In this document: one piece after another, positions 1 through 61,701 of the stretch
Layout of the letters: the number at the start of each line of letters is the position of its first letter
How positions within the stretch are numbered: position 1 is the stretch's first letter
Source: Verrucomicrobiia bacterium
Lineage (GTDB): Bacteria; Verrucomicrobiota; Verrucomicrobiia; Limisphaerales; DSYF01
Reading direction: 5' to 3'
DNA length: 64,000 bases
Assembly (NCBI GenBank): GCA_035765895.1
Contig: DASTWL010000012.1
Span: 38,565-102,564 of the forward strand
The notes under the pieces: model-generated
What the model saw: only the letters and a program-made list of their open reading frames with translations
What the model was told of the DNA's origin: nothing
Databases searched by the model: none
Program-made: the position numbers and the translations under genes

Positions 1-702
1 GACGGCATCGGCGTGCTTTACCTGGATGGTGCGCCGGTGGCGACGAATCAGGCGATGACCTTGACGCCCGCCGACCTCGGCAACACCACCCAGAACTGGC
101 TGGGCCGCTCGCAATATCCCGCCGATCCGTATCTCAGCGGGGTGGTGGATGACTTTCGCATCTACCGTGGCGTGCTGAGTCCGGCGGAAGTGGCGAGTTT
201 TGTCACGCCGTTGGCGGCGCCCAACGGCCTGGCGGCCGTGCGCGGTGATGGGCAGGTGCAGTTGAACTGGGACGCGGTCGCGACGGCCAATGGCTACAAC
301 CTCCGGCGCGCCACGCTGAGCGGCGGGCCCTACACGCTCGTGGCGACCAATCTGCCTGGGTTGGATGAGCTCGATGCCCCCGTGACCAACGGGACGCGCT
401 ACTACTACGTCGTTTCGGCCACCAACACGGTGACGGAAAGCGCCGGTTCGGCTGAAGTCTCGGTGGTGCCAACGGCCGCGACGCCAGCCCAACTCGCCAT
501 TGTCCGCGACGGCGGCCAGCTTCGGCTCAACTGGCCGGGTGATCACACAGGCTGGCGGCTGCAAACGCAGACCAACCCGCTGGCGGTGGGTCTCGGCGGT
601 GCGTGGTTCACCCTGCCGGACGCCGACCATACCAATCAATTCGCGCTGCCATTTGACCTTTCCAACGAGAGCGTCTTTTTCCGCCTGCAATCGCCGTATT
701 GA
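1..702 (+). CDS. secreted LamG (concanavalin-like)/fibronectin type III domain protein, C-terminal part; 5' end lies outside the window
   Basis: The frame is open from base 1. A LamG-like segment (LGRSQYPADPYLSGVVDDFRIYRGVLSPAEV) is followed by an FN3-like segment (GDGQVQLNWDAV..GYNLRR..TRYYYVVSATN). The C-terminal beta-module ends in FFRLQ. Confidence 0.7.
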   Translation, partial: DGIGVLYLDGAPVATNQAMTLTPADLGNTTQNWLGRSQYPADPYLSGVVDDFRIYRGVLSPAEVASFVTPLAAPNGLAAVRGDGQVQLNWDAVATANGYNLRRATLSGGPYTLVATNLPGLDELDAPVTNGTRYYYVVSATNTVTESAGSAEVSVVPTAATPAQLAIVRDGGQLRLNWPGDHTGWRLQTQTNPLAVGLGGAWFTLPDADHTNQFALPFDLSNESVFFRLQSPY

Positions 703-1007
703 GAGTCGAAGCGGAAGCGAAAATGGATTTGCCGCGCAACGCTCAGGAGGAGCGCCGGCGTCCTTGCCGGCTTGCACCGTCCGGACTCCTGCCCGCGTTC
801 GTCTCGCATTTGATTCCACCGTTTCACTGCTCGTCCGCCCCAAGCCGCTGGGGACAGCGGCGCTCCGGTTGGAGGGCGAGCGTCTCTCCATCCGAATTCC
901 CCAGCCCCAGCGGGGCGGCATCGGCGGGAACATGCCGCTCCTGAACGGAGCTTGGGATGGTTTTGGAACGGCTGGCTATAAACATGCCGCACCTACGGTG
1001 CTGTAGC

Positions 1008-1166
1008 GGCGGGCATCCTGCCTGCCGTGGAGCCGGTGCTTCCAGCCCGGCGGAAAAAACCGCACGCAAACACGAGGCGGTTGGCCAGTTCGAGCGGCCC
1101 TCGGTTCATCCACGCCCTTTCCGGGCGGCAGGATGCCGCCCTCTACGTCAGGCAGGATGCCTGACG
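1008..1166. repeat. cluster of three REP-like hairpins with the conserved core GGCA-GGA-TGCC
   Basis: Hairpins: 1008-1026 ggcgggca-tcc-tgcctgcc (opposite orientation), 1123-1141 gggcggca-gga-tgccgccc, and 1146-1166 cgtcaggca-gga-tgcctgacg. The same core occurs in the elements at 35730-35808 and 59571-59661. Confidence 0.7.
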
Positions 1167-1174
1167 CTACGTTG

Positions 1175-2768: not shown

Positions 2769-4057
2769 TCCACGATTTCTACCAATGCATAATCCTTTTT
2801 CCCCTTTCGGAGTAGAAGGTAGTGGCCTGAAAACTGGAAGATTCGCGTGCTAACGACCAAATTTTGGTCCTGTTCTCGGATATTGTTTAGATACACCCCA
2901 CCTTCTTGGATCTTTCTGCGTGCTTCGCCCTTGGACTTGAACAATCCCGCGAGGACTAGCAACTCTGCAAATGCCATCCCGGGATCATCCAATTGCCTTT
3001 TTGAAACTTTTATAGTTGGCACCTCGTTACTCAGCATCTCAAACATACCTGCTTCGTTTTGCCAGACCGTCAGCGGACTACCGAAAAGGATGTCGCTCGC
3101 TTGCAGCGCCAGTTTCGTCGCGTGTTCACCGTGGATGAGGTCGGTGGCGGCTTTGGCGAGCGCGCGGTGCGCGGCGCGGGCGCCGGGATTTGCGTTGTGT
3201 TGCGCTTCGAGCGTCGCGATTTCTTCCTGCGGCAGGAAGGTGAAGAATTTCAGGTAGCGGATCACGTCCGCATCGGCGGTGTTGATCCAGAACTGGTAGA
3301 AGCGATAGACGCTGGTCTTCTTCGGATCGAGCCACACCGAGCCGCCCTCGGTCTTGCCGAACTTGGTGCCGTCAGCCTTGGTAATGAGCGGGAGCGTGAG
3401 GCCGAACGCGGAGCGCTGAAGCTTCTTGCGGATGAGGTCCATGCCGGCGGTGATGTTGCCCCATTGGTCGCTGCCGCCGATCTGGAGTTCGCAGTTATGG
3501 TCGCGCGCCAGCACCATGTAGTCGAACGCCTGGAGCAGCATGTAGCTGAACTCGGTGTAGCTGATGCCGACTTCGCGGTCTTCCATGCGCGCGCGGACGC
3601 TCTCCTTCGCCACCATCTGATTCACGGAAAAATGCTTTCCGATGTCGCGGAGGAAATCGAGGTAGGTGAGGTGCGCGGTCCAATCGGCATTGTCCACGAG
3701 TTTGGCCGGGTTCGCTTTGGCGTCGAAATCGAGCAGCTTGGCGAGCTGCGGGCGGACGGCTTCGACGTTGGCCTTGATCTGGTCCTTGGTGAGCAGCGAG
3801 CGCTCGGCGGATTTGCCGCTCGGGTCGCCGATGCTGCCGGTCGCGCCGCCGGCGACGGCGATGGGATGATGGCCGTAATTCTGAAAGCGACGCAATGCGA
3901 GCAACGGCACGAGATGCCCGACGTGGAGCGAGTCCGCCGTGGGATCGAACCCGCAGTAAAGCGTGATGGGCGACGCGGCGAGGCGCTTGGTCAGCTCGGG
4001 CGTGTCGGTGCAATCGGCGAAGAGGCCGCGCCATTGCAGTTCATCCAGAATGTTCAT
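2765..4057 (-). CDS. tyrS: tyrosine--tRNA ligase
   Basis: The class I motifs are HVGHL (HIGH) and KFGKT (KMSKS), with a C-terminal S4-like domain. I prefer the start at MNILDELQWRG (4057) over the ORF-track start at 4198. The 3' end, about 2765-3080, has visibly lower G+C. Confidence 0.9.
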   Translation of the reverse strand: MNILDELQWRGLFADCTDTPELTKRLAASPITLYCGFDPTADSLHVGHLVPLLALRRFQNYGHHPIAVAGGATGSIGDPSGKSAERSLLTKDQIKANVEAVRPQLAKLLDFDAKANPAKLVDNADWTAHLTYLDFLRDIGKHFSVNQMVAKESVRARMEDREVGISYTEFSYMLLQAFDYMVLARDHNCELQIGGSDQWGNITAGMDLIRKKLQRSAFGLTLPLITKADGTKFGKTEGGSVWLDPKKTSVYRFYQFWINTADADVIRYLKFFTFLPQEEIATLEAQHNANPGARAAHRALAKAATDLIHGEHATKLALQASDILFGSPLTVWQNEAGMFEMLSNEVPTIKVSKRQLDDPGMAFAELLVLAGLFKSKGEARRKIQEGGVYLNNIREQDQNLVVSTRIFQFSGHYLLLRKGKKDYALVEIVD

Positions 4058-4234
4058 GGGGGCGCAGGCTAAATTGCCGTTTGCCGGATGCCAATAGCCA
4101 ATCGAATGCGCCGCCGGAAGCCGCGCAAGGAAATGCCGCTTTACTCGCAATTTTTCCATTCCTAGTTTGAGCGAGTTAATGTGGGAAGCGTTTTTCATGG
4201 AAACGCCGCAACATCAGCGCGCGGCCGCACAGGA

Positions 4235-6223
4235 ATGACTGGCAAAACCAAAATTGATCGGGCGGGCCTCGCCCTGGGCGTGGGCGTGTGGCTGGTCGTG
4301 CTGGCGGGCGTGGGCGTGGCGTTGCGGCAGATTCAGGCCAATCGGGCCGAGCTGGAGCATCAGGCGGAGCAGGAGCTGGAGTCGGTGGCGGCGTTGAAGG
4401 CGCAGCAACTGGCCGGCTGGCGGGCCGAACGGCTGGCGGATGCGAGTTTTTTCAGCAATGCCGAGTTTGTGCGGCGGGACGTGTCGGCCTTCCTGCGGGA
4501 CCGGGGTTCATCCGTCGGGCGGGAAGAAATGATCCGGTGGATGAACCTGCTCAAGGGCGGGGAGCGTTACGAGCGCGTGTGGTTGTTCAATGCGCAAGGA
4601 AACCGGCAACTGTCCGTTCCGCCGGACACCAATCCGCCTTGCGCCTGTTTGCAGGCGTTGTTGCCGGCCGGGCTTCATGCCGATCAGGTGTCGTTGAGCG
4701 ACATCGAACGCGATCCGGCTGACGGCCATCTTTGCCTCCAGGCGTTGCTGCCCGTGCGGGGGGGCAACCAGACGGAAGCGCCGGGCGCCGCCCATCCGTT
4801 GATCGTCGTCACCATCAATCCGCGCAGCGTGCTGTTTCCGATGATCCAGACCTGGCCGGTCGCCAATGCGACGGCGGAGGTTCTCCTGCTGCGGCTCGCC
4901 GGCGATGAGGCGGTGGTGCTCAACGAACTGCGGCATCGCACCAACACCGCCCTGCAAATGAAGCTGCCGCTCGATGCCTCGCAGGCGCTGACGCTGCAGG
5001 CCTTGCGCGCGGGCAAGGGCGTGTGGTGGGGCAAGGATTATCGCGGGGTGCCGGTGGTGGCGGCCGTGCGGCCGGTGCCCGGCACGCCGTGGGTGCTGGT
5101 GGCGAAAATGGATGAAGCCGAATTCTCGGCGCCGCTGCGGGGCTACTTGTGGAGCACCGTGCTGCTGCTGGTGGTGCTCGCCCTGAGCGGCCTGCTCGTG
5201 GGCAGCGTGTTGCTCCGCCGGCAGCGCACGCGGCATCTGCGCGAGGAACTGACGTTGGAACGCGCCGGCCGGGCACTGGCCGAGCGGTTCGCCATCCTGA
5301 TGGAGAATGCCGGTGACATCATTTTGCTGATGGATTCCGAATTGCGGGTGGTGGAGGCGAACCGGCAGGCGGTCGAGGTGTTTGGCTTTTCGCTGGCGGA
5401 GCTGCGGGAGAAGCGGCTGCCTGAGCTGCTCGCGCCCGGCGCCGCGGCGGAGTTGCCGCGCCGGCTGGAACAGGTGCAGGGCCACGACAGTCTCGTGGAG
5501 GTGGCGGAAGGCCGGCATCGCGACGGCCACTCCTTCCACGTCGAAATCAATGGCCGCCGCGTGATGATCGATGGCGTTGACCGGTTGTTGCTGGTCGGAC
5601 GCGACATCAGCGCGCGGTTGCAACAGGAGCAGGCCCTGCGCGAGGCGCAACGGGAGCTGCAAGCCATCGTGGATCAGGCCGGTTCCCTGATTGGCGTAAA
5701 GGCGTTGGATGGCCGTTACCGGCTGGTCAACCAGGCTCTGGCCGGGCGGCTGGGGCGTCCGGCCGAGGCGCTGCTGGGCTGCACTGATGACGAACTGCTT
5801 CCCCGCGAGGCGGCCGAACGGGCCCGGGGGCAGCACCAGGAAGTCGTTCGGCGGCGCAAGCCGCTGATCTGCGAGGAAACGTTCACCGAAGCGGACGGGG
5901 CGCACACGTATCTCTCCCTCAAATTCCCGCTGACCGACGAGCAGGGCGAACTTTACGGCGTGGGGAGCATTGCAACGGACATCACCGGGCGCAAGGAGAC
6001 GGAGGAAAAGCTTCGGGCGCAGGCGGACGAACTGCGCGCGAATTATGACGCGCTGGCGCGGTTCAATCGCGTGGTCGTGGGCCGGGAGTTGCGCATGATT
6101 GAACTCAAGCGCGAGATTAACGAGCTGTGCCGGCAACTGGGCCGTCCGGCCCCTTACGTGAGCGATTTGACGGCGGTTGGACTGGCCCCGGAAGACGTTG
6201 CGAAACCGGCAGCACAACCATGA
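4235..6223 (+). CDS. membrane PAS-domain sensor protein without a kinase or other output domain
   Basis: Layout: N-terminal TM helix, ~280-aa extracytoplasmic region, second TM helix (LWSTVLLLVVLALSGLLVG), two PAS-like segments, and a C-terminal coiled coil (RELRMIELKREINELCRQLG). No H-box or ATPase is present. The ORF opens at 4181; I prefer the start at 4235. Confidence 0.7.
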   Translation: MTGKTKIDRAGLALGVGVWLVVLAGVGVALRQIQANRAELEHQAEQELESVAALKAQQLAGWRAERLADASFFSNAEFVRRDVSAFLRDRGSSVGREEMIRWMNLLKGGERYERVWLFNAQGNRQLSVPPDTNPPCACLQALLPAGLHADQVSLSDIERDPADGHLCLQALLPVRGGNQTEAPGAAHPLIVVTINPRSVLFPMIQTWPVANATAEVLLLRLAGDEAVVLNELRHRTNTALQMKLPLDASQALTLQALRAGKGVWWGKDYRGVPVVAAVRPVPGTPWVLVAKMDEAEFSAPLRGYLWSTVLLLVVLALSGLLVGSVLLRRQRTRHLREELTLERAGRALAERFAILMENAGDIILLMDSELRVVEANRQAVEVFGFSLAELREKRLPELLAPGAAAELPRRLEQVQGHDSLVEVAEGRHRDGHSFHVEINGRRVMIDGVDRLLLVGRDISARLQQEQALREAQRELQAIVDQAGSLIGVKALDGRYRLVNQALAGRLGRPAEALLGCTDDELLPREAAERARGQHQEVVRRRKPLICEETFTEADGAHTYLSLKFPLTDEQGELYGVGSIATDITGRKETEEKLRAQADELRANYDALARFNRVVVGRELRMIELKREINELCRQLGRPAPYVSDLTAVGLAPEDVAKPAAQP

Positions 6224-9200
6224 GTCTGGAGCGGCAAACAACGCGGGAGACTTTGGAACAGGAAGTCGCGACATTGCGGCTGCGCCTGGCGCAACTGGAG
6301 GGCAGCCGGCCGGTCGGGGCGGCGTCCGCCGGTGCCGTTTCACCGTGGTCCGCGCTGATCGAAAACATGGGCGTCAGCGCCGCCTTGCTCTCTGCCGATG
6401 GCTTGATTCTCTGTGCCAGCCGCGTCTTCGCGGAAATGTTTCGCCTGCCGGCAGAACTGCTGCCGGGCACGGCGCTGGCCTCGTTCATCTTCGACGAGCA
6501 CCGGCACCGCTACCTGACGCTGTTCGGCAGCCTGCAAAACGGTCCCACCACCGGCGAACTGGTGGGCCTGCGTGCCACCCGCGAGATGTTTCCCCTGCGG
6601 CTGACCCTGTGCCCCATGCCTGCCGTCAGCGGCGGGGCGGTGGCGGCGCTGGTCATCGACCAGACCCAGCAGGACGAACTGGAGCGGCTGCGCCGGCACG
6701 TGGCGGAGATGGAGCGGGAGCGTGCACAGCGGGACGCGGAATCAGCCGCGGCGTTGCGCGAACTCGCGGACGCGCGACTGGCGGCGTTGAACGTGCTGGA
6801 GGACGCCGTTCAAGCACGACAACGCAGCGAGCAGATCAACCGCCAGTTGCGGGAGAGTGAGGAACGTTTCCGCACACTCGTGGAGACGGCGCCCGACGCC
6901 ATTTCCATTCAGAGCGACGGCTGTTTTCGCTACGTGAATCGGGCGGTGCTCACGCTCTACGGTGCGGAGTCGCCGGCGCAACTGCTCGGGCGGCCGGCCT
7001 TGGATCGCGTGCATCCGGATTATCACGCCATCGCGCTCGAACGCCGGCGCCGGGTGGATGATGCGCATGAACCGGCCGGCGCCATGGAGCAGGTGCACCT
7101 GCGCCTCGACGGCACGCCGGTCCATGTGGACATTTGCGCGGTGCCGTTCCAGTTCGAAGGGGAACCGGCGGTGCTCGTTTTTGCGCGAAATCTGACCGAA
7201 CGCAAGCAGGCGGAAAAGGCGGCCGAGGAACGCTCGGCCGAACTGGACCGGTTTTTCAGCCTGGCGCTGGACCTGCTGTGCATCGCCGATCCGGGCGGTC
7301 GATTGCTGCGGTTGAACCCGGCGTGGGAACCGTCGCTCGGTTATCCGGTGGCGGAACTGGCCGGGCATTCGCTGCTCGACTTCGTGGATGAGGATGATGC
7401 CGCCGACACCATTGCCGCGTTCGCGGAAGTCTGTGCGAGGGGGGGCATCGTCAGCTTCACGAATCGCTGCCGTCACAAGGATGGCACCCTGCGCTGGATC
7501 GAATGGCGGGTGGCGTCTTACTCGGGTTCCCTGGTTTACGCGGCGGCGCGCGACATCACCGAGCGCCTGCAATCGGAGGAGACGCTGCGCCTGCGGAACA
7601 CTGCGCTGGAGGCGGCGGCGAACGTCGTGGTCATTACCGACCGTCAGGGCCGGATTGTCTGGACGAACCCTGCGTTCACGCAGTCCACGGGCTACACGGC
7701 GGCCGAGGTGCTGGGCCGCAACCCGCGCTTGTTGAAGTCGCAGGAACAAGACCCGGCCTTTTATCGCCAGATGTGGGAGGCGATCACGGCAGGCGACGTG
7801 TGGCAGGGCGAGTTCGTCAACGTCCGCAAGGACGGCACGCGCTTCACCGAACACGCCACCATCACACCGGTCCGGAATGAATCCGGCCAGATCACGCACT
7901 TCATTGCCGTGAAGCAGGACGTTAGCGAGCAGAAGCAGGCCGAACAACGGCTGCGCGACCAGGCGCAACTCCTCGACCTCGCGAATGACGCCATCATCGT
8001 CTGCGCGCAGGACCAGACGATCGTGAACTGGAATCAGGGCGCCGAGCGGCTTTACGGCTGGAGCAAGGCGGAGGCCCTCGGCCGGGCATTGCATCCGTTG
8101 CTGGGCCGGCCCCAGTCGGTGTCCGAGGCCGAGATCACCCGTGAACTCGACGCGCGCGGCAGTTGGAATGGCGAGCTTCGGCAGCACAACCGCGAGGGCA
8201 AGGAGATTACCGTCATCAGCCGCTGGACTCTGATTCGCGAGGAGCACGGCGCGGCCAAGAGCATTCTCGTCATCAACGCGGACGTCACCGAACGGAAGCG
8301 GCTCGAGGCACAGTTCCTCCGCATGCAGCGTGTTGAGAGCATCGGCACGCTCGCGGCCGGCATCGCGCATGATTTGAACAACATCCTCGCGCCGATTCTC
8401 ATGGTCGGCCCGTTGCTCGAGGAGAAGGTCAAGGACGACGAAGGCCGCTGGATGCTGGAGGCGGCGCGTAAAAACGCCGAGCGGGGCGCGTCCATCGTGA
8501 AACAACTGCTGACCTTTGCCAAGGGCAGTGAAGGCGAGCTGATCCCGCTCGACCTGACGCGCCTGCTCAAGGACATGGCCGGCATCGTGCGCGAAACGTT
8601 CCCGAAAAACATCCGCTGTGAAACGTCCCTGCCGCCGCAGCCATGGCCCGTGCTGGGCAACCTGACGCAACTCCACCAGGTTGTGCTGAACCTGTGCCTT
8701 AACGCCCGGGACGCCATGCCGGACGGCGGCCAGCTGCGTCTCGCCATGGACAACATCGTCGTGGATGAGTCGTTCGTGGCGATGGAAATCCAGGCCCGGC
8801 CCGGGCCATATGTGGTATTGACCGTGGCGGACACGGGCCAGGGCATTCCGGACGACATCAAGGAACGCATCTTTGATCCGTTCTTCACCACGAAGGGACC
8901 GGACCGGGGCACGGGGCTGGGCCTGGCGACGGTGCTGGGCATCGTGCGCAGCCACAATGGATTCATCCGCCTGACCAGCCGGGTGGGGGAGGGATCACAA
9001 TTCAAGATTTACCTGCCGGCGTCCGACATTGTGGACACGGCGGGTCAGGCGGCCGAACAGACGGCGGCAGCGCCCCGCGGCAATGGCGAGTTGATTCTGC
9101 TGGTGGACGACGAGGAGGCCGTGCGTGCCACGAGCCGCCGGGCCCTGACCAAGTTTGGCTACCGCGTGGTGGAGGCGGCCGACGGCACCGAGGGGGTCAG

Positions 9201-20546: not shown

Positions 20547-20649
20547 ATCCTTAAGATGACTACCGCAGCCGCGCCGGGAAAATCAATTCCCGCGGGTTGA
20601 TCATGCCGGGGATCACCTCAGCCGCGCGGAGCGCGGTCTTGGCGGATCG

Positions 20650-20800
20650 CCCTTCCAATGGCCGACGAGGTTAGCTGTCGGGCTGGGCCTTGAAAGTGGC
20701 CTGAGCAGCGGTTGCCCGTCGCTCTGCGCCCCGCCCGGCGTGGTTCACACCGGGAATCTGGTTCCCCCGCCTGCAGCTTCAGGAAGGAAGCCGCAGTTAG
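20650..20800 (-). promoter_or_regulatory. candidate c-di-AMP riboswitch (ydaO-yuaA class) in the kup 5' leader
   Basis: The minus-strand RNA contains GGCGGGGGAACCA, CCGGUGUGAACC, GCCGGGCGGGG and CCCAGCCCGACAGCUAACCUCGUCGGCC. As I remember the ydaO consensus, these match its conserved blocks (GGGGGACCCA, GGGGUGAAUC, GGUAGGG, CCCGAAUCCG.CAGCUAACCUCGUAAGC). It ends about 105 nt upstream of the kup ATG. Confidence 0.55.
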
Positions 20801-21094
20801 GCTGCGTGGGTGAAGGTTACCGCAATGGTCGGACGGATGCAAACCCTCGGAAACATTGCCATTCGGGCAACGGCCCTTCACCGGCTGCGCCGAACCGGCC
20901 TGAAGGGCATTGTCACTTCAGGCGGCTTCATACCGCTCCAATCAAAAAATTTCGGTGTCGGCACGACGGGCAGAGCATGGTCACTCTGAGCGAACAAATC
21001 CGGGCGCCATCACCGCATAGCGGCCCATGACCAAAAACGGCAATCCACTTTCAGCCGCCTTGTTGATTATGGTTTGGAATGCGCCCCCGTCGCC

Positions 21095-34919: not shown

Positions 34920-37751
34920 TCACGCGCGTCCGTAGTGTTCGACCAGCGCGCGCAGCCGGGCGTTGAAGCCCCCGGCGGCGCGCAGTGTTTCGGTGGTCAG
35001 ATGCATCCGGTAGCGCCAGTAATGCCGCGGATTGGCGGGCACATTGATGCGCTCGGCGTGCGGATCCTCACGGCGCAACGATTCGTCCATGCCCAGCAAG
35101 TCCTGCAATTGAAAAATGCTCCACATGGCCGGCGATGCGAGATGCTGGCGGATGATGGCCTCGTTCAATTCGCCGGAACAATCTGCCGGCGCGGCGCCCG
35201 CCCGTCCGAGTTCCTCATTGAAGAAACGTTGCGTCAGTTGCGCATCCTCGGCCCACCAGCCGCGCAGGGTGCTCATGTCGTGCGTCGAGGGCGTGACCAC
35301 GCTGAGGTAGGGCGCCTCCGCGGGACGCGCGAAGGCCCGGTCCGGAGTTTTGGGCATGCGCTGGATTTCGAGGCTGAGGAGGCCGAGTTCCTTCATCACG
35401 CCGGGCACGCAGCCGGGCACGAGCCCGAGGTCTTCGCCGCAGATGAGCATGTTGGTGGCGCGCTTCAACCCTGGCAGCTTCTGCATGGCCTGCGTCCGCC
35501 AGAACCCATCCTGCCGGCGGAAAAAGTAATCCACATACAGCTCGCGCAACCGCGCCTGCGTGCCGGCATCCAGGGCGCGGAACGAGGCGGTCTTCTCCAT
35601 GTGAAACCGAAAATGAAACTGCCGTCCGCCGTCGCCGTCCGCCGCGAACAGCAGCACGTTGCTGATGAGTTCGAAGAGGCCGAGTTTGAGGCGTTGATCG
35701 TCCTGGGTTGGGGCCGCGGCGAATTCCGTAGTGGGACAGGCATCCTGCCTGTCCGGTGACTCATCCAATTCATCCGCCGCACTGGACCGGCAGGATGCCT
35801 GTCCCACTGCCCGGTTCGCGGGAGGCACGGAGGCGCGTTCGCTGAAATGCTCCTCCACCTGCCGCTGCGTGGCGAATTCCGGGCGCAACGCGAATTGCCC
35901 GGGCGCCACCGGCTGGAGGAACGTGGCTTTGACCGCCTCCGCCCCGGCACCGAACATTTCCCGCAGCACGGCGTCGGTGATGAACGGTGCGAGATAACGG
36001 GCGCGATCGAAGGGAATCCCGCGGGCCGCGAATTCGGCGAGGTCCACGGGAATCGCCGGCACGAAATGCCCCATGATGCCTTCCACGGCGTGCGCGGGAA
36101 TGCTCCAGATGCGAAAGAAGCCGAGGATGTGGTCGATGCGGAACGCGTCGAAGTAGTGGCCCATCTGGGCGAACCGCTGGCGCCACCACGCAAACCCATC
36201 CTCCATCATGCGCGGCCAGTTGTAGGTGGGGAAACTCCAGTTCTGACCTTTTTCTGCGAACGGATCGGGCGGCGCGCCCGCCTGGACGCTGAGATCGTAA
36301 AGTTCCGGCGCCTGCCAGGTATCCGCCCCGTAACGCGAGACGCCAATCGCAATGTCGCCCTTCAGAATCACGCCGCGCGCGTGGGCATGCTCGGCGGCCT
36401 CCTGCAACTGCCGGTGCAGGTGAAACTGGATGAAGTAATGCAACGCCACGGCGTCGAAGTCCGGCGCACTTTCGTCCGCGAGCGCGGCAATCTCCGCGGG
36501 CGTGCAACGCTGGTGTGCCGGCCATTGCCGCGGATCGGCCGAACCGTATTTGTCGCGCAGACAACAGAACACGGCGTAAGGCGTCAGCCAGGGCTGGTTT
36601 TCGGCGAAGAATTTTCGATACGCCGCGCTTTGAAACGTTTTGGCGCGTTGCGCGGTGCAGGCCCTTTTCAGGAACGCCAGCTTGGCCTGCATGACGGCGA
36701 CGTAATCCAGCTCGGGCAGGGCGTTGAGCCGCTGGCGCTCCGGTTCGAGCTCGCGCAACCAGGTTTTGGCCCGGCCCGTGGCCAGCGCCGCGAGGTTCAG
36801 GTAAAGCGGATGCAGTGCGAAGGCCGAAATCGCCGAATACGGATACGAATCCGTCCACGCATGCGTGGCGGTCGTGTCGTTGACCGGCAGGACCTGGATC
36901 AGTTTCAGGCCGGTCTGGGCGCACCAGTCGGCGAGCGGTTTGAGATCTGCGAATTCGCCCACGCCAAAACTGCTTTCGCTGCGCAGGCTGAACACCGGGA
37001 TGGCGACGCCAGCGCCCTTCCAGTCTGGGGCGGGCAGCCGCGCGAAGCCGTCATTCACGACCACCCGGCGCCGCGGCGCGGCAGGCTCTTCGAGTCGGCG
37101 GTTTTCGCCCGTTTCGTAAGCCAGCAGAAACCGCCGTTCCAGATCGAACACGCCGTATTTGTATTCGAGCGGCAACGCATCGCCCGCGAGGGCGAGGGTC
37201 GCCGTCAAAAAGTCCTCGCCGGGCATCCGGTTGAGCAGAACGGGATTCGTGGTTTCCCAACGGCCGAGCGCGGCGGCACTGCCGAGCAGGCACAACGTCT
37301 GGCCGCGCGCCAGCAGCGGGGCCTTCACCTTGAAGGTATGCGTGCCGTTGGCCGGCGCGGGCGTCTGGAACGGGGTTTGCCGCTCGCGCAAAAGCACGGC
37401 CTTGAACGGTTCGGTGTAGAAGGCGTTTTCGACGAAGCCAGCGGCGTTCCAGGCATCCACCACCAACACGTCGCCCTGTGCGCACAGTTCCCGCGTGAGC
37501 CGGCGATCCGTGCCCCAGTCGCTGACGATGGAACCGTCGGCTTCCCGGAGGAGGTAATGATAGGCCAGACCGTCGGCGGGCAGGGCCTCGGGAGTGGGGA
37601 TTTCGAGGGAACCGACCCAGCTTTCCGCGTCGTGATACTGCAACGGCAGGGCGTGGTCCGGGTGGTCGTTGCCGAGCCAGGGATGCGGACCGGTGAGGTG
37701 CAGGGATTGCCCGAATTCGGTGTGGAACCGCAGCTTGAAACTCACCTTCAT
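34920..37751 (-). CDS. malQ: 4-alpha-glucanotransferase (GH77, DPE2-like) with N-terminal starch-binding modules
   Basis: The N-terminus is CBM20-like ([19 protein letters not shown]). The GH77 core reads [30 protein letters not shown]. It carries an in-frame repeat insertion at 35730-35808. Confidence 0.88.
35730..35808. repeat. hairpin-pair (MITE/REP-like) palindromic element inside malQ
   Basis: The terminal inverted repeats are AGTGGGACAGGCATCCTGCC ... GGCAGGATGCCTGTCCCACT. Each arm is itself a hairpin (ggacaggca-tcc-tgcctgtcc and ggaccggca-gga-tgcctgtcc). It is translated in frame as [14 protein letters not shown]. Confidence 0.8.
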
Positions 37752-37869: not shown

Positions 37870-37954
37870 TGGTGCGCACGGCAGGACTTGAACCTGCACG
37901 ATGTTACTCACTAGAACCTGAATCTAGCGCGTCTGCCAATTCCGCCACGTGCGC
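37870..37954 (-). tRNA. tRNA-Leu (anticodon CAG)
   Basis: The reverse complement is GCGCACGTGGCGGAATTGGCAGACGCGCTAGATTCAGGTTCTAGTGAGTAACATCGTGCAGGTTCAAGTCCTGCCGTGCGCACCA. It has a 7-bp acceptor stem, an anticodon stem CTAGA/TCTAG with loop TTCAGGT, a long variable arm, a T-arm GGTTCAAGTCC, and an encoded CCA. Confidence 0.92.
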
Positions 37955-58205: not shown

Positions 58206-58284
58206 TTTTGTCCCCGCCGCCGGGGCCGTTCATTGACCCGCCCGCCGCCCGTTGTTAGTGTGCGCGGCACTTTTTAAGGCGCTC

Positions 58285-61200
58285 ATGGACTATAAAGAAA
58301 CGCTGAATTTGCCGCGCACGGACTTTCCAATGAAGGCCGACCTGGTCACCCGCGAGCCGGAACGGCTCAACCAGTGGCAGGCCAGCCGGCTTTACGAACG
58401 CATCCAGGCCTCGCGGGCCAACGCGCCCCGGTTCGTGCTGCACGACGGCCCGCCGTTTGCCAATGGCGACGTCCACATCGGCACGGCGCTGAACAAGATT
58501 CTCAAGGACATCATCCTCAAATACCAGACCCTGCGCGGGAAGCGGGCGCCTTACATCCCGGGCTGGGATTGCCACGGGCTGCCCATCGAATTCAAGGTCT
58601 CGCAGGAAATGCGCAAGGCTGGCAACACCGACGCCGATGCGGCGACCATTCGCAAGGCGTGCGAGGCTTACGCGCGCAAATACATCGACATCCAGCGCGA
58701 ACAATTCAAACGCCTCGGCGTGTTGGGCGATTGGGACCATCCCTACCTCACGCTCAACAAGGAATATGAGGCGGACGAATTGCGCCTGTTCGCGGACATC
58801 GTGGAGCAGGGTTTTGTTTATCGCGGCAAAAAGCCGGTGTATTGGAGCATTCCGTGCCGCACCGCGCTGGCCGAGGCGGAAGTGGAATACCAGGACCACG
58901 TCAGCCAGAGCGTGTTTGTGAAATTCCCGGTCGTTGGGCAGCCGAAGACCTTTGTCGTGATCTGGACCACCACACCCTGGACGTTGCCGGCGAACCTTGC
59001 GGTCGCCTACAACGCCAGTTTCCAATACGTGCAGGCCGAAGTGGCGGGCGAAACCTACATCCTGTTTCGGGACCTGCTGCCGCAGGTGGCGGACAAATGC
59101 GGCTGGAGCAGCTTCAGCCAGCGTGACCTGCCCACCGAAGCCCTGGCGAAGCTGGTGTATCAGCATCCGTTCTGCGATCGCACAGGCCGGCTGTTCCCGG
59201 CGGAGTTTGTCACGAGCGACACGGGCACGGGCTTCGTGCACATCGCGCCCGGGCACGGCCTGGAGGACTACGGCCTCGGCCGGCAGGTCGGGCTGCCGGT
59301 TTACTCGCCGGTGGACGACAATGGCTGCCTGACCTACACCAACGACCTGCCAATGGAGCAACAGATGCCGCCCGAAATGGCCGGCAAATCCATCCTCGAA
59401 AAACACGGCAAGAGCGACGCGAATGAAGCCGTGCTGCACGAATTGCGCGTGCGCCATGCGTTGCTGCATCAGGAGAATTACCACCACAGCTACCCGCATT
59501 GCTGGCGCAGCAAGACGCCGGTCATTTTCCGCGCGATGGACCAGTGGTTCATCAAGATTGACCACGCCGTAGTGGGACAGGCGTCTCGCCTGTCCAGCGA
59601 GCGTTCCAACGCGAGCAGTGCTGGCGACGCGCAACCGGAAAGGCAAGATGCCTGTCCCACTTTCCGCCAGCGAGCTCTCGCCGAGATTGATGCCGTGAAG
59701 TGGATTCCGGACTGGGGCATCAACCGCATCAAGAGTGCCGTGCAGACGCGTCCCGACTGGTGCATCAGCCGGCAGCGCACGTGGGGCGTGCCGATTCCGG
59801 CCTTTTACGACGCGCAGGGCGAGCCCCTGCTCGATGCCCGCGTCGTCCGCAACGTGGCGCAGCTCATCGAGCAGCACGGCAGCAACGTGTGGTTTGAAAA
59901 GGACGCCGCGGAACTGTGGTCCCTGGTGAAGCCCGCGGATTGGAACGGTCCGGAAGCCGTGGCCAAGTCCGGCGACACGCTCGACGTGTGGATTGATTCC
60001 GGCAGCTCGTCACGCGCGGTGCTGATGCAGCGCCCGGAACTTTCCCGCTCCGCACTTCGCACTCCGCACTCCGCACCCGACTGGCAGGCCGACATGTATT
60101 TCGAAGGCTCGGACCAGCACCGCGGCTGGTTCCAGAGTTCGCTCCTGCTCTCGCTGGCCGGCAATGGCGCCGCGCCGTTCAAGACCGTGCTCACGCATGG
60201 CTTCATGGTGGACGCCGACCGCGAAAAGATTTCCAAGAGCAAGCAGGGCGGCTACGAGAAGCCGCAGACCGCCGAGGCCTACGTGAAGAAGTGGGGCGCC
60301 GACGTCGTGCGCCTCTGGGTGTCGTCGCAGGATTTCCGCAACGACATCGTCGTGAGCGAGGAACGCATCAACAAGGTGGGCGAAACCTACCGCGGCATCC
60401 GCAACGCGTTGCGTTACCAGCTATCGAATCTCTATGACTTCGACCCGGCAAAACATACCGTGGCGGACGATAAACTGACCGGCCTGGACCGCTGGATTCT
60501 CGCCGAGTTCAGCAAGGTGGAGGCGGACGTGCTCAAGGCCTACGACGCGCAGGAGTTCCACGTCGTTTACCAGAAGCTCAGCCAGTTCATCGCGGTGGAG
60601 CTGTCCTCGGTCTATCACGATGTGATCAAAGACCGGATGTATACCGACGCCGCCAACTCTGCTCGCCGCCGCTCGACGCAGACGGCGTTGCATCGGTTGG
60701 TAATGGGCTTGTGCAAAATGCTCGCGCCGATTCTCGCATTCACGGCGGACGAAGCGTGGGCCTTCATTCCCGGCAAGCCGACGGAAACGGTGCATGAAGC
60801 AGAGTTGAAGTCGGCGAGTTTCGTTTTGTCAGAAGCGGAACAAGCCAGTTGGAAGATGCTCTTCGAACTGCGCAATTCTGCTCTTCCCCAACTGGAGAAA
60901 GCGCGCCAAGGCAAGCAGATCGGGAAATCACTCGAAGCTGCACTTGAGCTTCATGTGCCAAACGCATTGAAGGAGGTTGTAGCAGGTCCAATTCAAACCG
61001 AGGCTGCTGTTATCTGCGAGACTCCAACTGGGCACGGCTACTCTCAAGAATACATTTCTTTATGGCCTTCATTCCTCAAGGAGGAATGGCGAGTCCAGAT
61101 CCAGGAGTTGTTTGGCGTTTCCCAGTTCGCTTATCAGTTCGAGCAAACGAAGCGCCTCTGGTTTGTTGTCAAGAAAGCCGATGGCCAGAAGTGCGAGCGC

Positions 61201-61293
61201 TGCTGGCATTGGGAAACTGATGTGGGTTCCAGCCCAGAGCATCCCACCATTTGCGCCCGTTGCGTCGAGGCGGTGAAGCAGTTCAAAGCCTGA
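58285..61293 (+). CDS. ileS: isoleucine--tRNA ligase
   Basis: It has PFANGDVHIGT (HIGH region), KISKSK (KMSKS), a CP1 editing domain, and C-terminal Zn-finger cysteines (CERCW..CARC). The start is at MDYKETLNLP. It contains an in-frame repeat at 59571-59661 and a lower-G+C 3' end from about 60790. Confidence 0.93.
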   Translation: MDYKETLNLPRTDFPMKADLVTREPERLNQWQASRLYERIQASRANAPRFVLHDGPPFANGDVHIGTALNKILKDIILKYQTLRGKRAPYIPGWDCHGLPIEFKVSQEMRKAGNTDADAATIRKACEAYARKYIDIQREQFKRLGVLGDWDHPYLTLNKEYEADELRLFADIVEQGFVYRGKKPVYWSIPCRTALAEAEVEYQDHVSQSVFVKFPVVGQPKTFVVIWTTTPWTLPANLAVAYNASFQYVQAEVAGETYILFRDLLPQVADKCGWSSFSQRDLPTEALAKLVYQHPFCDRTGRLFPAEFVTSDTGTGFVHIAPGHGLEDYGLGRQVGLPVYSPVDDNGCLTYTNDLPMEQQMPPEMAGKSILEKHGKSDANEAVLHELRVRHALLHQENYHHSYPHCWRSKTPVIFRAMDQWFIKIDHAVVGQASRLSSERSNASSAGDAQPERQDACPTFRQRALAEIDAVKWIPDWGINRIKSAVQTRPDWCISRQRTWGVPIPAFYDAQGEPLLDARVVRNVAQLIEQHGSNVWFEKDAAELWSLVKPADWNGPEAVAKSGDTLDVWIDSGSSSRAVLMQRPELSRSALRTPHSAPDWQADMYFEGSDQHRGWFQSSLLLSLAGNGAAPFKTVLTHGFMVDADREKISKSKQGGYEKPQTAEAYVKKWGADVVRLWVSSQDFRNDIVVSEERINKVGETYRGIRNALRYQLSNLYDFDPAKHTVADDKLTGLDRWILAEFSKVEADVLKAYDAQEFHVVYQKLSQFIAVELSSVYHDVIKDRMYTDAANSARRRSTQTALHRLVMGLCKMLAPILAFTADEAWAFIPGKPTETVHEAELKSASFVLSEAEQASWKMLFELRNSALPQLEKARQGKQIGKSLEAALELHVPNALKEVVAGPIQTEAAVICETPTGHGYSQEYISLWPSFLKEEWRVQIQELFGVSQFAYQFEQTKRLWFVVKKADGQKCERCWHWETDVGSSPEHPTICARCVEAVKQFKA
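59571..59661. repeat. hairpin-pair (MITE/REP-like) palindromic element inside ileS
   Basis: AGTGGGACAGGCGTCTCGCCTGTCC ... GGAAAGGCAAGATGCCTGTCCCACT has the same termini as the malQ copy. It is translated in frame as VGQASRLSS..ERQDACPT. Confidence 0.75.
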
Positions 61294-61325
61294 ATTTCGG
61301 AGGTGAGAATTTGGTTGGTCGCTCT

Positions 61326-61475
61326 CCCTCATCCCGGCCTTCTCCCCAAGGAGAAGGAGAATTATTCGCCGGTTTTCTGAAAGATCGAGTGACTGGATTT
61401 GCCCGGCGACCTGTCGCAAAACCAAACACGCATCGGCGCGGTTCCTTCTCCCGGGGGAGAAGGTCAGGATGAGGG
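61326..61475. repeat. MITE-like element with ~32-bp terminal inverted repeats (CCTGACC-hairpin family)
   Basis: The left arm is ccctcatcccggccttctccccaaggagaagg. The right arm is ccttctcccgggggagaaggtcaggatgaggg, whose reverse complement is nearly identical to the left arm. Each arm has its own hairpin. The element lies 33 nt after the ileS stop. Confidence 0.7.
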
Positions 61476-61701
61476 CGGGCAACACACCATTTGCAGATCA
61501 GGCGCATTGTATTGTCGGCCTCCGAAAGCGGAGCTGAAGCGGCAGCACTCCAGGTGCTGTCGCGTTTAGATGGTAGGTGACGACGTAAGGAGTCTCACTT
61601 TAGAAACCGGCAGGGAGATTAACAGGCGAATGGGGAGAAACGAATTGAGGATAAGTTAGAGACTCGCCACCCCGTCTCCTACCATTGTTAAGGCGCTTCG
61701 C

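Follow-up and report, generated by a model that had tools for sequence, protein, structure and literature searches.

The 64-kb window analysed here (64,000 nucleotides of contig DASTWL010000012.1, from a Verrucomicrobiia bacterium) carries a malQ gene for a 4-alpha-glucanotransferase and an ileS gene for the essential isoleucyl-tRNA synthetase (IleRS), and inside each of them lies a short palindromic element that leaves the open reading frame (ORF) intact (Table 1). This element is very probably a REPIN, in which two repetitive extragenic palindromic (REP) hairpins with a GTAG or GTGG tag (GTAG-TGGGACAGGC-loop-GCCTGTCC) are inverted, with their heads outward, around a variable spacer, and which would be moved by a REP-associated tyrosine transposase (RAYT). 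An earlier note on this DNA, made from the letters alone, had described the copy in malQ. It was right about that copy and overlooked the one in ileS.

Table 1. Palindromic elements of the window, their host genes and related hairpins.
Feature	Position	Strand	Details
Related GTAG-tagged single REPs	1003..1170		1003-1027 (GTAG head); 1123-1146 and 1146-1170 (CTAC tails)
malQ, host gene, DPE2-type 4-alpha-glucanotransferase, 943 aa	34920..37751	-	Two CBM20 domains and GH77
Complete lineage-specific MalQ insert, 40 aa (aa 641-680)	35712..35831	-	Includes imperfect extended palindrome 35719-35819
REP dimer (probable REPIN) inside malQ	35730..35808		Left arm 35730-35754, right arm 35784-35808, spacer 29 nt
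ileS, host gene, IleRS	58252..61293	+	775 bits to PDB 8c9e
Second REP dimer, same family as the malQ element, inside ileS	59569..59661		Arms 59571-59595 and 59637-59661

The element in malQ

The termini of the malQ element, at 35730-35749 (AGTGGGACAGGCATCCTGCC) and 35789-35808 (GGCAGGATGCCTGTCCCACT), are perfect 20-nt reverse complements. Within the left arm, positions 35734-35754 form a perfect hairpin (GGACAGGC-ATCCT-GCCTGTCC) with an 8-bp stem and a 5-nt loop, and the right-arm hairpin at 35784-35804 has a single stem mismatch. If mismatches are allowed, the palindrome extends beyond these termini to arms of 40 nt that are 83% complementary. The folding energy of the region as single-stranded DNA is -39 kcal/mol (z = -6.9), a value that none of 200 shuffles equalled. 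The 24-mer arm pattern occurs four times in the window against 0.00 expected, and GGCAGGATGCC five times against 0.11 expected. The inverted repeat, the hairpin in each arm and the in-frame position within the 4-alpha-glucanotransferase ORF had all been proposed in the earlier note, and each is confirmed here. The product of this ORF matches PF02446 (Glyco_hydro_77) at 7.9e-143 and contains two CBM_20 domains.

We aligned the best 120 MalQ homologues (59-70% identical, typically 901 aa) with MAFFT. About 110 of them have nothing opposite residues 641-680 of the window protein, so that no ancestral homologous peptide is seen at the site in these orthologues, and the insertion claimed in the note is borne out by this as well as by the recurrence of the same arms in the unrelated ileS and in at least 120 loci elsewhere. 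The proposed length of about 26 aa holds for the hairpin pair, which the minus strand reads without interruption as residues 649-674; it does not hold for the lineage-specific insert, which measures about 40 aa against the orthologues and of which the hairpin pair is the central portion. The extra 14 aa or so may be part of a longer element or of an earlier event.

Several orthologues carry inserts at this very site that are unrelated to the one in the window. In P0004 it is a different GTAG...CTAC REP heterodimer (GTAGGAGAGGCTTTCCAGCCTGCC ... GGCGGACAAGAATGTCCGCCCTAC), and in P0009 yet another palindrome (CCCTCTCCCCATCGGATGGGGAGAGGG). The malQ loop has thus been struck independently in several orthologues.

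In an AlphaFold2 model built from a 40-sequence alignment (mean predicted local distance difference test, pLDDT, of 77.6), residues 642-679 have pLDDT values of 27-38 and are modeled as coil between the helices 629-640 and 683-696. The insert is thus predicted to be a disordered loop, in agreement with the loop insertion that the note had suggested. The invariant columns RIDH (D540), GEDLG (E773 and D774) and THD (D825), which are the GH77 catalytic motifs, are retained. A sequence search of the PDB returned no structural homologue for the insert region. The solved amylomaltases align only to residues 246-601 and 817-916, which places the insert in a DPE2-type subdomain without a solved relative.

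The second copy in ileS

The element in ileS (59571-59661) spans 91 bp, with 25-nt arms that are 88% complementary and a spacer of 41 nt; the arm pattern matches at 59572-59595 and 59637-59660. The plus strand reads it as VVGQASRLSSERSNASSAGDAQPERQDACP(T), and this reading, VVGQASRLSSERSNASSAGDAQPERQDACPT, enters the element in the same frame as in the malQ copy. Because the same nucleotide arms occur in two unrelated genes, the conserved entity is the DNA and not the peptide. In the alignment to PDB 8c9e, residues 12-436 of the window IleRS correspond to chain residues 1-415 and residues 470-912 to 417-844, so that the 33 residues 437-469 stand in place of a single residue of the solved enzyme. 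An identical IleRS annotated at NCBI (P0121) starts 11 codons downstream of the ORF start given in Table 1.

The same site was compared in 120 IleRS orthologues (P0121-P0240, loci L124-L128; 71-78% identical). Between the flanking motifs WFIKIDH and TFRQRAL, 97 of the 120 carry an in-frame insert of 10-45 aa and 23 carry none. The inserts fall into at least eight peptide families. Four of them were inspected at the DNA level, and three (P0124, P0130 and P0151) are GTAG...CTAC palindromic dimers, P0124 belonging to the family of the window element and the other two to two further families; the fourth (P0147) is a palindromic dimer lacking the GTAG head. In the DNA of P0141 the site is empty. 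A rough neighbour-joining tree with Fitch parsimony puts the minimum at this position at 18 gains or losses and 59 family changes. The site is either an insertion hot spot or the seat of an ancient insertion with subsequent REP turnover. The window copy and that of P0124 have homologous spacer ends and near-identical arms while the proteins are 77% identical, which suggests that both descend from one ancestral copy whose arms have been kept uniform.

Two further observations were made at this gene. A second insert in the window IleRS (61003-61095, 31 aa, AAVICETPTGHGYSQEYISLWPSFLKEEWRV) is absent from all 119 other orthologues; it is relatively AT-rich, contains a small hairpin at 61070-61088 and lies outside the REP family. 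Just downstream of ileS, at 61312-61489, there is an inverted repeat whose 47-nt arms are 81% complementary and lie 84 nt apart. It holds CCTTCTCCCC/GGGGAGAAGG hairpins and resembles the in-frame palindrome of the malQ orthologue P0009 (..LSPSDGERDGVRG..), and it looks like a second palindromic repeat family of the lineage.

Assignment to the REP family

The consensus from the two window copies and one relative is GTAG-TGGGACAGGC-NTCCN-GCCTGTCCAGT, or, with the loop written more loosely, GTAG-TGGGACAGGC-NTCYN-GCCTGTCCAGT. Each unit is about 25-29 nt long, as is typical of a REP, with 8-bp stems (GGACAGGC / GCCTGTCC) and 5-nt loops. GTAG stands immediately 5' of TGGGAC on the left of both window dimers (ccGTAGTGGGAC), which supplies the head tetranucleotide, and the two inverted units, with their spacers of 29 and 41 nt, give stable folds in the manner of the long REPIN hairpin. 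The REP-like nature of the element had already been proposed in the earlier note, and the GTAG/GTGG head, the short palindrome, the inverted dimer, the lack of a target-site duplication and the RAYT genes flanked by such REPs elsewhere all agree with it. What departs from the definition of a REP is the location, since both window dimers lie inside ORFs and not between genes; intragenic location is a documented exception for GTAG REPs (PMC3733652).

In all, the 64 kb hold two dimers and three related single REPs. The latter, between 1003 and 1170, keep the GGC-ATCC-TGCC core and differ in the outer stem bases, which upholds the proposal that the malQ arms and these hairpins have a core in common. 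The TAG within the GTAG head of the first of them, at 1003-1006, is the stop codon of a predicted ORF (500-1006, plus strand), and the same behaviour of GTAG REPs in supplying stop codons was noted by Di Nocera et al. (PMC3733652).

Copies in other genomes

A scan for GTGGGACAGGC-N(42-72)-GCCTGTCCCAC over one genome per GTDB species found copies with exact ends in at least 120 loci. The counts that follow refer to the 123 copies among the matches listed. The GTGG on every arm follows from the construction of the search; GTAG is present on at least one side in 28 of the 123. By their record labels the carriers include Acidobacteriota (Bryobacterales, Solibacter), Verrucomicrobiota, Planctomycetota, Kiritimatiellota, Kapaibacterium, Nitrospiraceae, Thermodesulfobacteriota, Binatia, Chloroflexia and a Leptolyngbya isolate, and a single REP head and stem thus appears to be present across phyla, as far as the labels of the metagenome-assembled genomes (MAGs) go. 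Loops and flanks are taxon-specific, and spacers are conserved within a genome and specific to it: at least 5-8 copies with shared spacers occur in each of PLRS01 (bog_375), JBEKAQ01 and JBGSTE01, and in bog_375 about eight copies have one common spacer. These taxon- and genome-specific features argue for resident families and against cross-bin contamination.

The flanks of the copies prolong the inverted repeat. No consistent direct repeat was found in a search for target-site duplications in the 123 copies; 81 have no direct flank match at all, and the 2-nt matches in 30 are palindromic TA or AT.

Seven loci (L006, L016, L026, L087, L098, L117 and L118) come from MAGs labelled as uncultured Bifidobacteriaceae or Bifidobacterium, obtained from binchicken co-assemblies. 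Their copies are of the Verrucomicrobia style, with gta...tac flanks and CCAGTT inner stems, and the labels are probably wrong.

Insertion in frame

We surveyed 125 copies, the 123 above and the two in the window. In 58 of them a frame without stops runs through the copy and continues for at least 60 codons to either side, and about 35 (some 28%) were judged to lie in genuine coding frames, an estimate made by eye from GC content by codon position and not computed. In-frame copies inside real genes accordingly make up about a quarter to a third of the sample. Pfam domains were found in 17 of 18 spanning ORFs tested, and the hosts so identified are GlnE, DnaE (twice, both within HHH_6), HrpB, ValRS, an alpha-2-macroglobulin, a class II ribonucleotide reductase, an Fe-S protein, RF3, a short-chain dehydrogenase/reductase (SDR), a histidine kinase, a class-III aminotransferase, UvrD, NuoG, GMP synthase (GuaA) and two DUF1156 proteins.

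The TAG of the GTAG head is the one stop codon in the arms, which leaves five of their six frames open, and the REP family is for this reason unusually tolerable within ORFs. By hand count, about 24 copies are entered in the frame that reads VGQAS and about 10 in the frame that reads SGTG; the third entry frame is the one closed by the TAG. The exit peptide is ...DACPT, ...GKMPVPL or ...QAGSLSH, as set by the core length modulo 3, and no constraint on this quantity was seen among the in-frame copies, in which all three classes are present. With the same arms read in different frames in different genes, conservation is at the level of the DNA and not of the peptide.

Certain in-frame dimers are shared between MAGs. 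The pairs L019 (688-757) and L066 (4305-4374), L038 and L067, and L112 and L118 have such dimers with similar spacers, apparently at the same positions; the host is DnaE, within HHH_6, for one pair, an SDR gene for another and an unidentified gene for the third. These common insertions seem to have been inherited over speciation.

Association with RAYT genes in other genomes

When RAYT sequences from the literature (Additional file 5 of PMC3733652) served as tblastn queries, Y1-transposase genes were found in several of the loci from other genomes. Two of these carry the association. In L022, an ORF of 191 aa (5863-6438) matches PF01797 (Y1_Tnp) at 1e-7 and has the REP-associated tyrosine transposase model as its best NCBIfam match (67 bits, under the cutoff of 80); inverted single REPs of the malQ-element family bracket it at 5876-5900 and 6443-6467. 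In L044, a segment matches NF047646 at 95 bits, over the 80-bit cutoff, and is likewise bracketed by a REP of the malQ-element family. The RAYT-like gene of L114 was considered and rejected as support for this REP family, the REP that flanks it being a different one (GTGGGGCAGCCAATCCTGGCTGC). Within the 64-kb window, ten published RAYT and TIRYT sequences gave no Y1 transposase by tblastn.

The L044 locus (3948-7523, minus strand, of the Nitrospiraceae MAG contig CAZKRM010000009.1) has features of its own. A DUF1156 ORF of 1191 aa encloses, in frame, the RAYT and its flanking GTGGGACAGGC REPs; a REP in turn splits the RAYT in frame, and the ORF holds a further REP dimer at 4487-4577. The same REP is present in a DUF1156 gene of the Leptolyngbya isolate (L020). 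The copies in L044 and L020 hint that the DUF1156 host gene may have been horizontally transferred.

Mechanism and alternative explanations

The most likely course of events would begin with a non-autonomous element that is moved as single-stranded hairpin DNA by a RAYT (HUH/Y1) whose gene lies at another place in the genome. The insertions into malQ and ileS presumably arose by this route. Selection would then have kept the copies that preserve the frame, are free of stops and sit in permissive loops, properties which the two window copies have. The insert would finally be transcribed and translated as a hydrophilic peptide of 26-30 aa, rich in Gly, Ser, Ala, Gln, Arg and Asp and predicted to be disordered.

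Several points weigh against this account. The malQ insert runs to 40 aa and not 26, and since it exceeds the hairpin pair and the closest insert-free orthologue is only 70% identical, the insertion boundaries are not definable, and neither a single clean 79-bp event nor exact boundaries can be shown. Nor are the boundaries of the element fixed relative to the core, whose length modulo 3 is unconstrained. The RAYT link was found in other genomes and is extended from them to the genome of the window; the matches of L022 and L114 fall under the curated cutoff of NCBIfam, and we know of no case in which RAYT transposition has been reconstituted for the GTGG-GACAGGC REP. Translation of the insert would follow from the intact frame and the conserved residues of the host.

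One rival is a classical miniature inverted-repeat transposable element (MITE) that stems from an insertion sequence of the DDE type, such as an IS630/Tc1-like one with TA duplication, and is moved through its terminal inverted repeats and not by a RAYT. The 20-nt perfect terminal repeats and the length of 79-91 bp suit such an element. In many copies TA stands at both ends (gtaGTGGG...CCCACtac), and 30 copies have a 2-nt direct match. The TA and AT matches, however, are palindromic and equally prolong the inverted repeat, other frequent flanks (ttg...caa) are inverted, and most copies have no direct match, so that the inverted repeats are there and a consistent duplication is not. Moreover, the hairpin that each arm forms and its GTAG/GTGG head are the signature of a REP, single REPs of the family bracket Y1-transposase genes, and no DDE transposase with these ends was seen. 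We consider a MITE very improbable. An ancestral coding sequence, such as a low-complexity linker that is palindromic by accident, or an assembly artefact has the uninterrupted reading frame in its favour and nothing else. It is refuted by the orthologues that lack the segment, by identical nucleotide arms between genes and, in various frames, within unrelated ones, and by identical proteins in independent public assemblies (P0001 in two Logan contigs, P0121 in NCBI), and we leave it practically no probability.

The hairpin pair might instead be kept for a function, either as an mRNA structure (ribosome pausing or decay control at a domain boundary) or as a useful flexible loop, which would account for the lasting occupancy of certain codon positions in many lineages. 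In its favour is the occupancy of one exact codon position in 97 of 120 IleRS orthologues by inserts of many sequence families, and so are the near-identical arms and homologous spacer ends of the window ileS copy and P0124 despite 77% protein identity, the DnaE HHH_6 insert common to two MAGs, and the very stable mRNA-sense folds of the two window dimers (-64.5 kcal/mol for the malQ copy and -60.2 kcal/mol for the other). Against this, 23 of the 120 IleRS and about 110 of the 120 MalQ orthologues are free of an insert, the peptide sequence, its length and its reading frame vary freely, and unrelated genes and intergenic DNA have the same arms in common. A permissive loop, together with REPs that attract further REP insertion or conversion, suffices for the occupancy. 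A selected function is thus possible but not required, and as the explanation of the element we judge it improbable. A bolder extension of the REPIN assignment is that the GTGG-GACAGGC REP represents a translation-compatible, multi-phylum REPIN lineage that colonises a small number of "docking" codons in essential genes (among them the IleRS site, a DnaE HHH domain and the malQ loop), which would remain occupied over long evolutionary times while the resident palindrome is repeatedly replaced by the active REP family of the genome. This would imply that a RAYT re-inserts or converts the REP site-specifically within coding DNA, and perhaps that the structured segment is under selection for a role. 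The IleRS hot spot, the cross-phylum REP and the RAYT within a gene raise this idea and do not establish it; we hold it to be doubtful. If recurrent codon occupancy did reflect targeted re-insertion, it would offer a handle on the still unknown mechanism of RAYT transposition.

Relation to known systems

The phenomenon is already known, and what is new here is a family member with its own stem and peptides, and the hosts malQ and ileS. In the verrucomicrobium Opitutus terrae, GTAG REPs occur as singles or dimers in frame in about 70 ORFs, where they add 20-30 aa, and their heads are found as GTGG as well (Di Nocera, De Gregorio and Rocco 2013, BMC Genomics 14:522, PMC3733652). The earlier note had called such insertions uncommon, which stands for bacteria in general and fails for Verrucomicrobia, in which in-frame GTAG REPs have been catalogued (PMC3733652). 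The O. terrae families GTAG-17, GTAG-18 and GTAG-19 resemble the window element in the phylum of the host (Verrucomicrobiota), in the GTAG head (often GTGG), in the stem of 7-9 bp with a loop of 4-6 nt and in the inverted dimers in frame in housekeeping genes, such as uvrA, dnaE2, RF3 and glycoside hydrolases (PMC3733652). The GTAG-19 peptides GTGVPPV...HGRDARAT are frame equivalents of SGTGxxPV...DRQDACPT of the window family, and the two are on this ground sisters with different stems, GACAGGC in the window family differing from the GTAG-19 stem inferred from its peptides. The strings ACAGGC, VGQA and ACPT were not found in that paper or its supplements, and its host list has no malQ and names IleRS as host only for a CGTC-type repeat of Erythrobacter litoralis (PMC3733652).

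REPIN/RAYT systems (Bertels and Rainey 2011, PMC3116915; Nunvar et al.; NCBIfam NF047646) are alike in the two inverted REPs that form with their spacer one long hairpin, in the genome-specific family with conserved spacers and in the single REP-bracketed Y1/HUH transposase gene, here in L022 and L044. Classical REPINs are extragenic and, according to RAREFAN and related work, mostly inherited vertically within a lineage. The window family differs from them in having a quarter to a third of the sampled copies in frame and a head and stem that recur in MAGs labelled as many phyla. The palindromic elements of Rickettsia (Rickettsia palindromic elements, RPE; Ogata et al. 2000 Science; 2002 Genome Res, PMC186582) are likewise palindromic selfish DNA in frame within unrelated, often essential genes, where they add a surface peptide, and a palindromic repeat in frame in unrelated protein genes is what we find here too. 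However, RPE-1 is about 150 bp long with a conserved peptide, and the short RPE-4 and RPE-6 belong to a CGTC-tagged superfamily with no associated transposase, whereas the present element is GTAG/GTGG-tagged and RAYT-linked. The Rickettsia hosts are obligate intracellular organisms and the host of the window element is free-living and of high GC. With ends of GTAG/GTGG and not CGTC and a verrucomicrobial host, the element is not assigned to RPE-1 to RPE-10, which are confined to Rickettsia, a judgement made without direct alignment to RPE sequences.

REPs and REPINs, although defined as extragenic, thus sit routinely inside essential genes of Verrucomicrobiota, Acidobacteriota, Planctomycetota and other soil and freshwater lineages, and would add disordered loops to their products. 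Such insertions account for many peculiar differences in length and low-complexity stretches in the proteins of MAGs, for which VGQAS...DACPT, GKMPVPL and QAGSLSH serve as signatures, and they call for caution about REP-encoded segments on the part of annotators and structure predictors. They also mark places at which IleRS, DnaE, GH77 and similar enzymes naturally tolerate an insertion.

Other features of the window

A search of the whole window with Rfam 15 at gathering thresholds returned no match at the malQ or the ileS element. It placed a tRNA gene at 37873-37954 on the minus strand, immediately upstream of malQ, and a c-di-AMP (ydaO/yuaA) riboswitch at 20645-20813, also on the minus strand.

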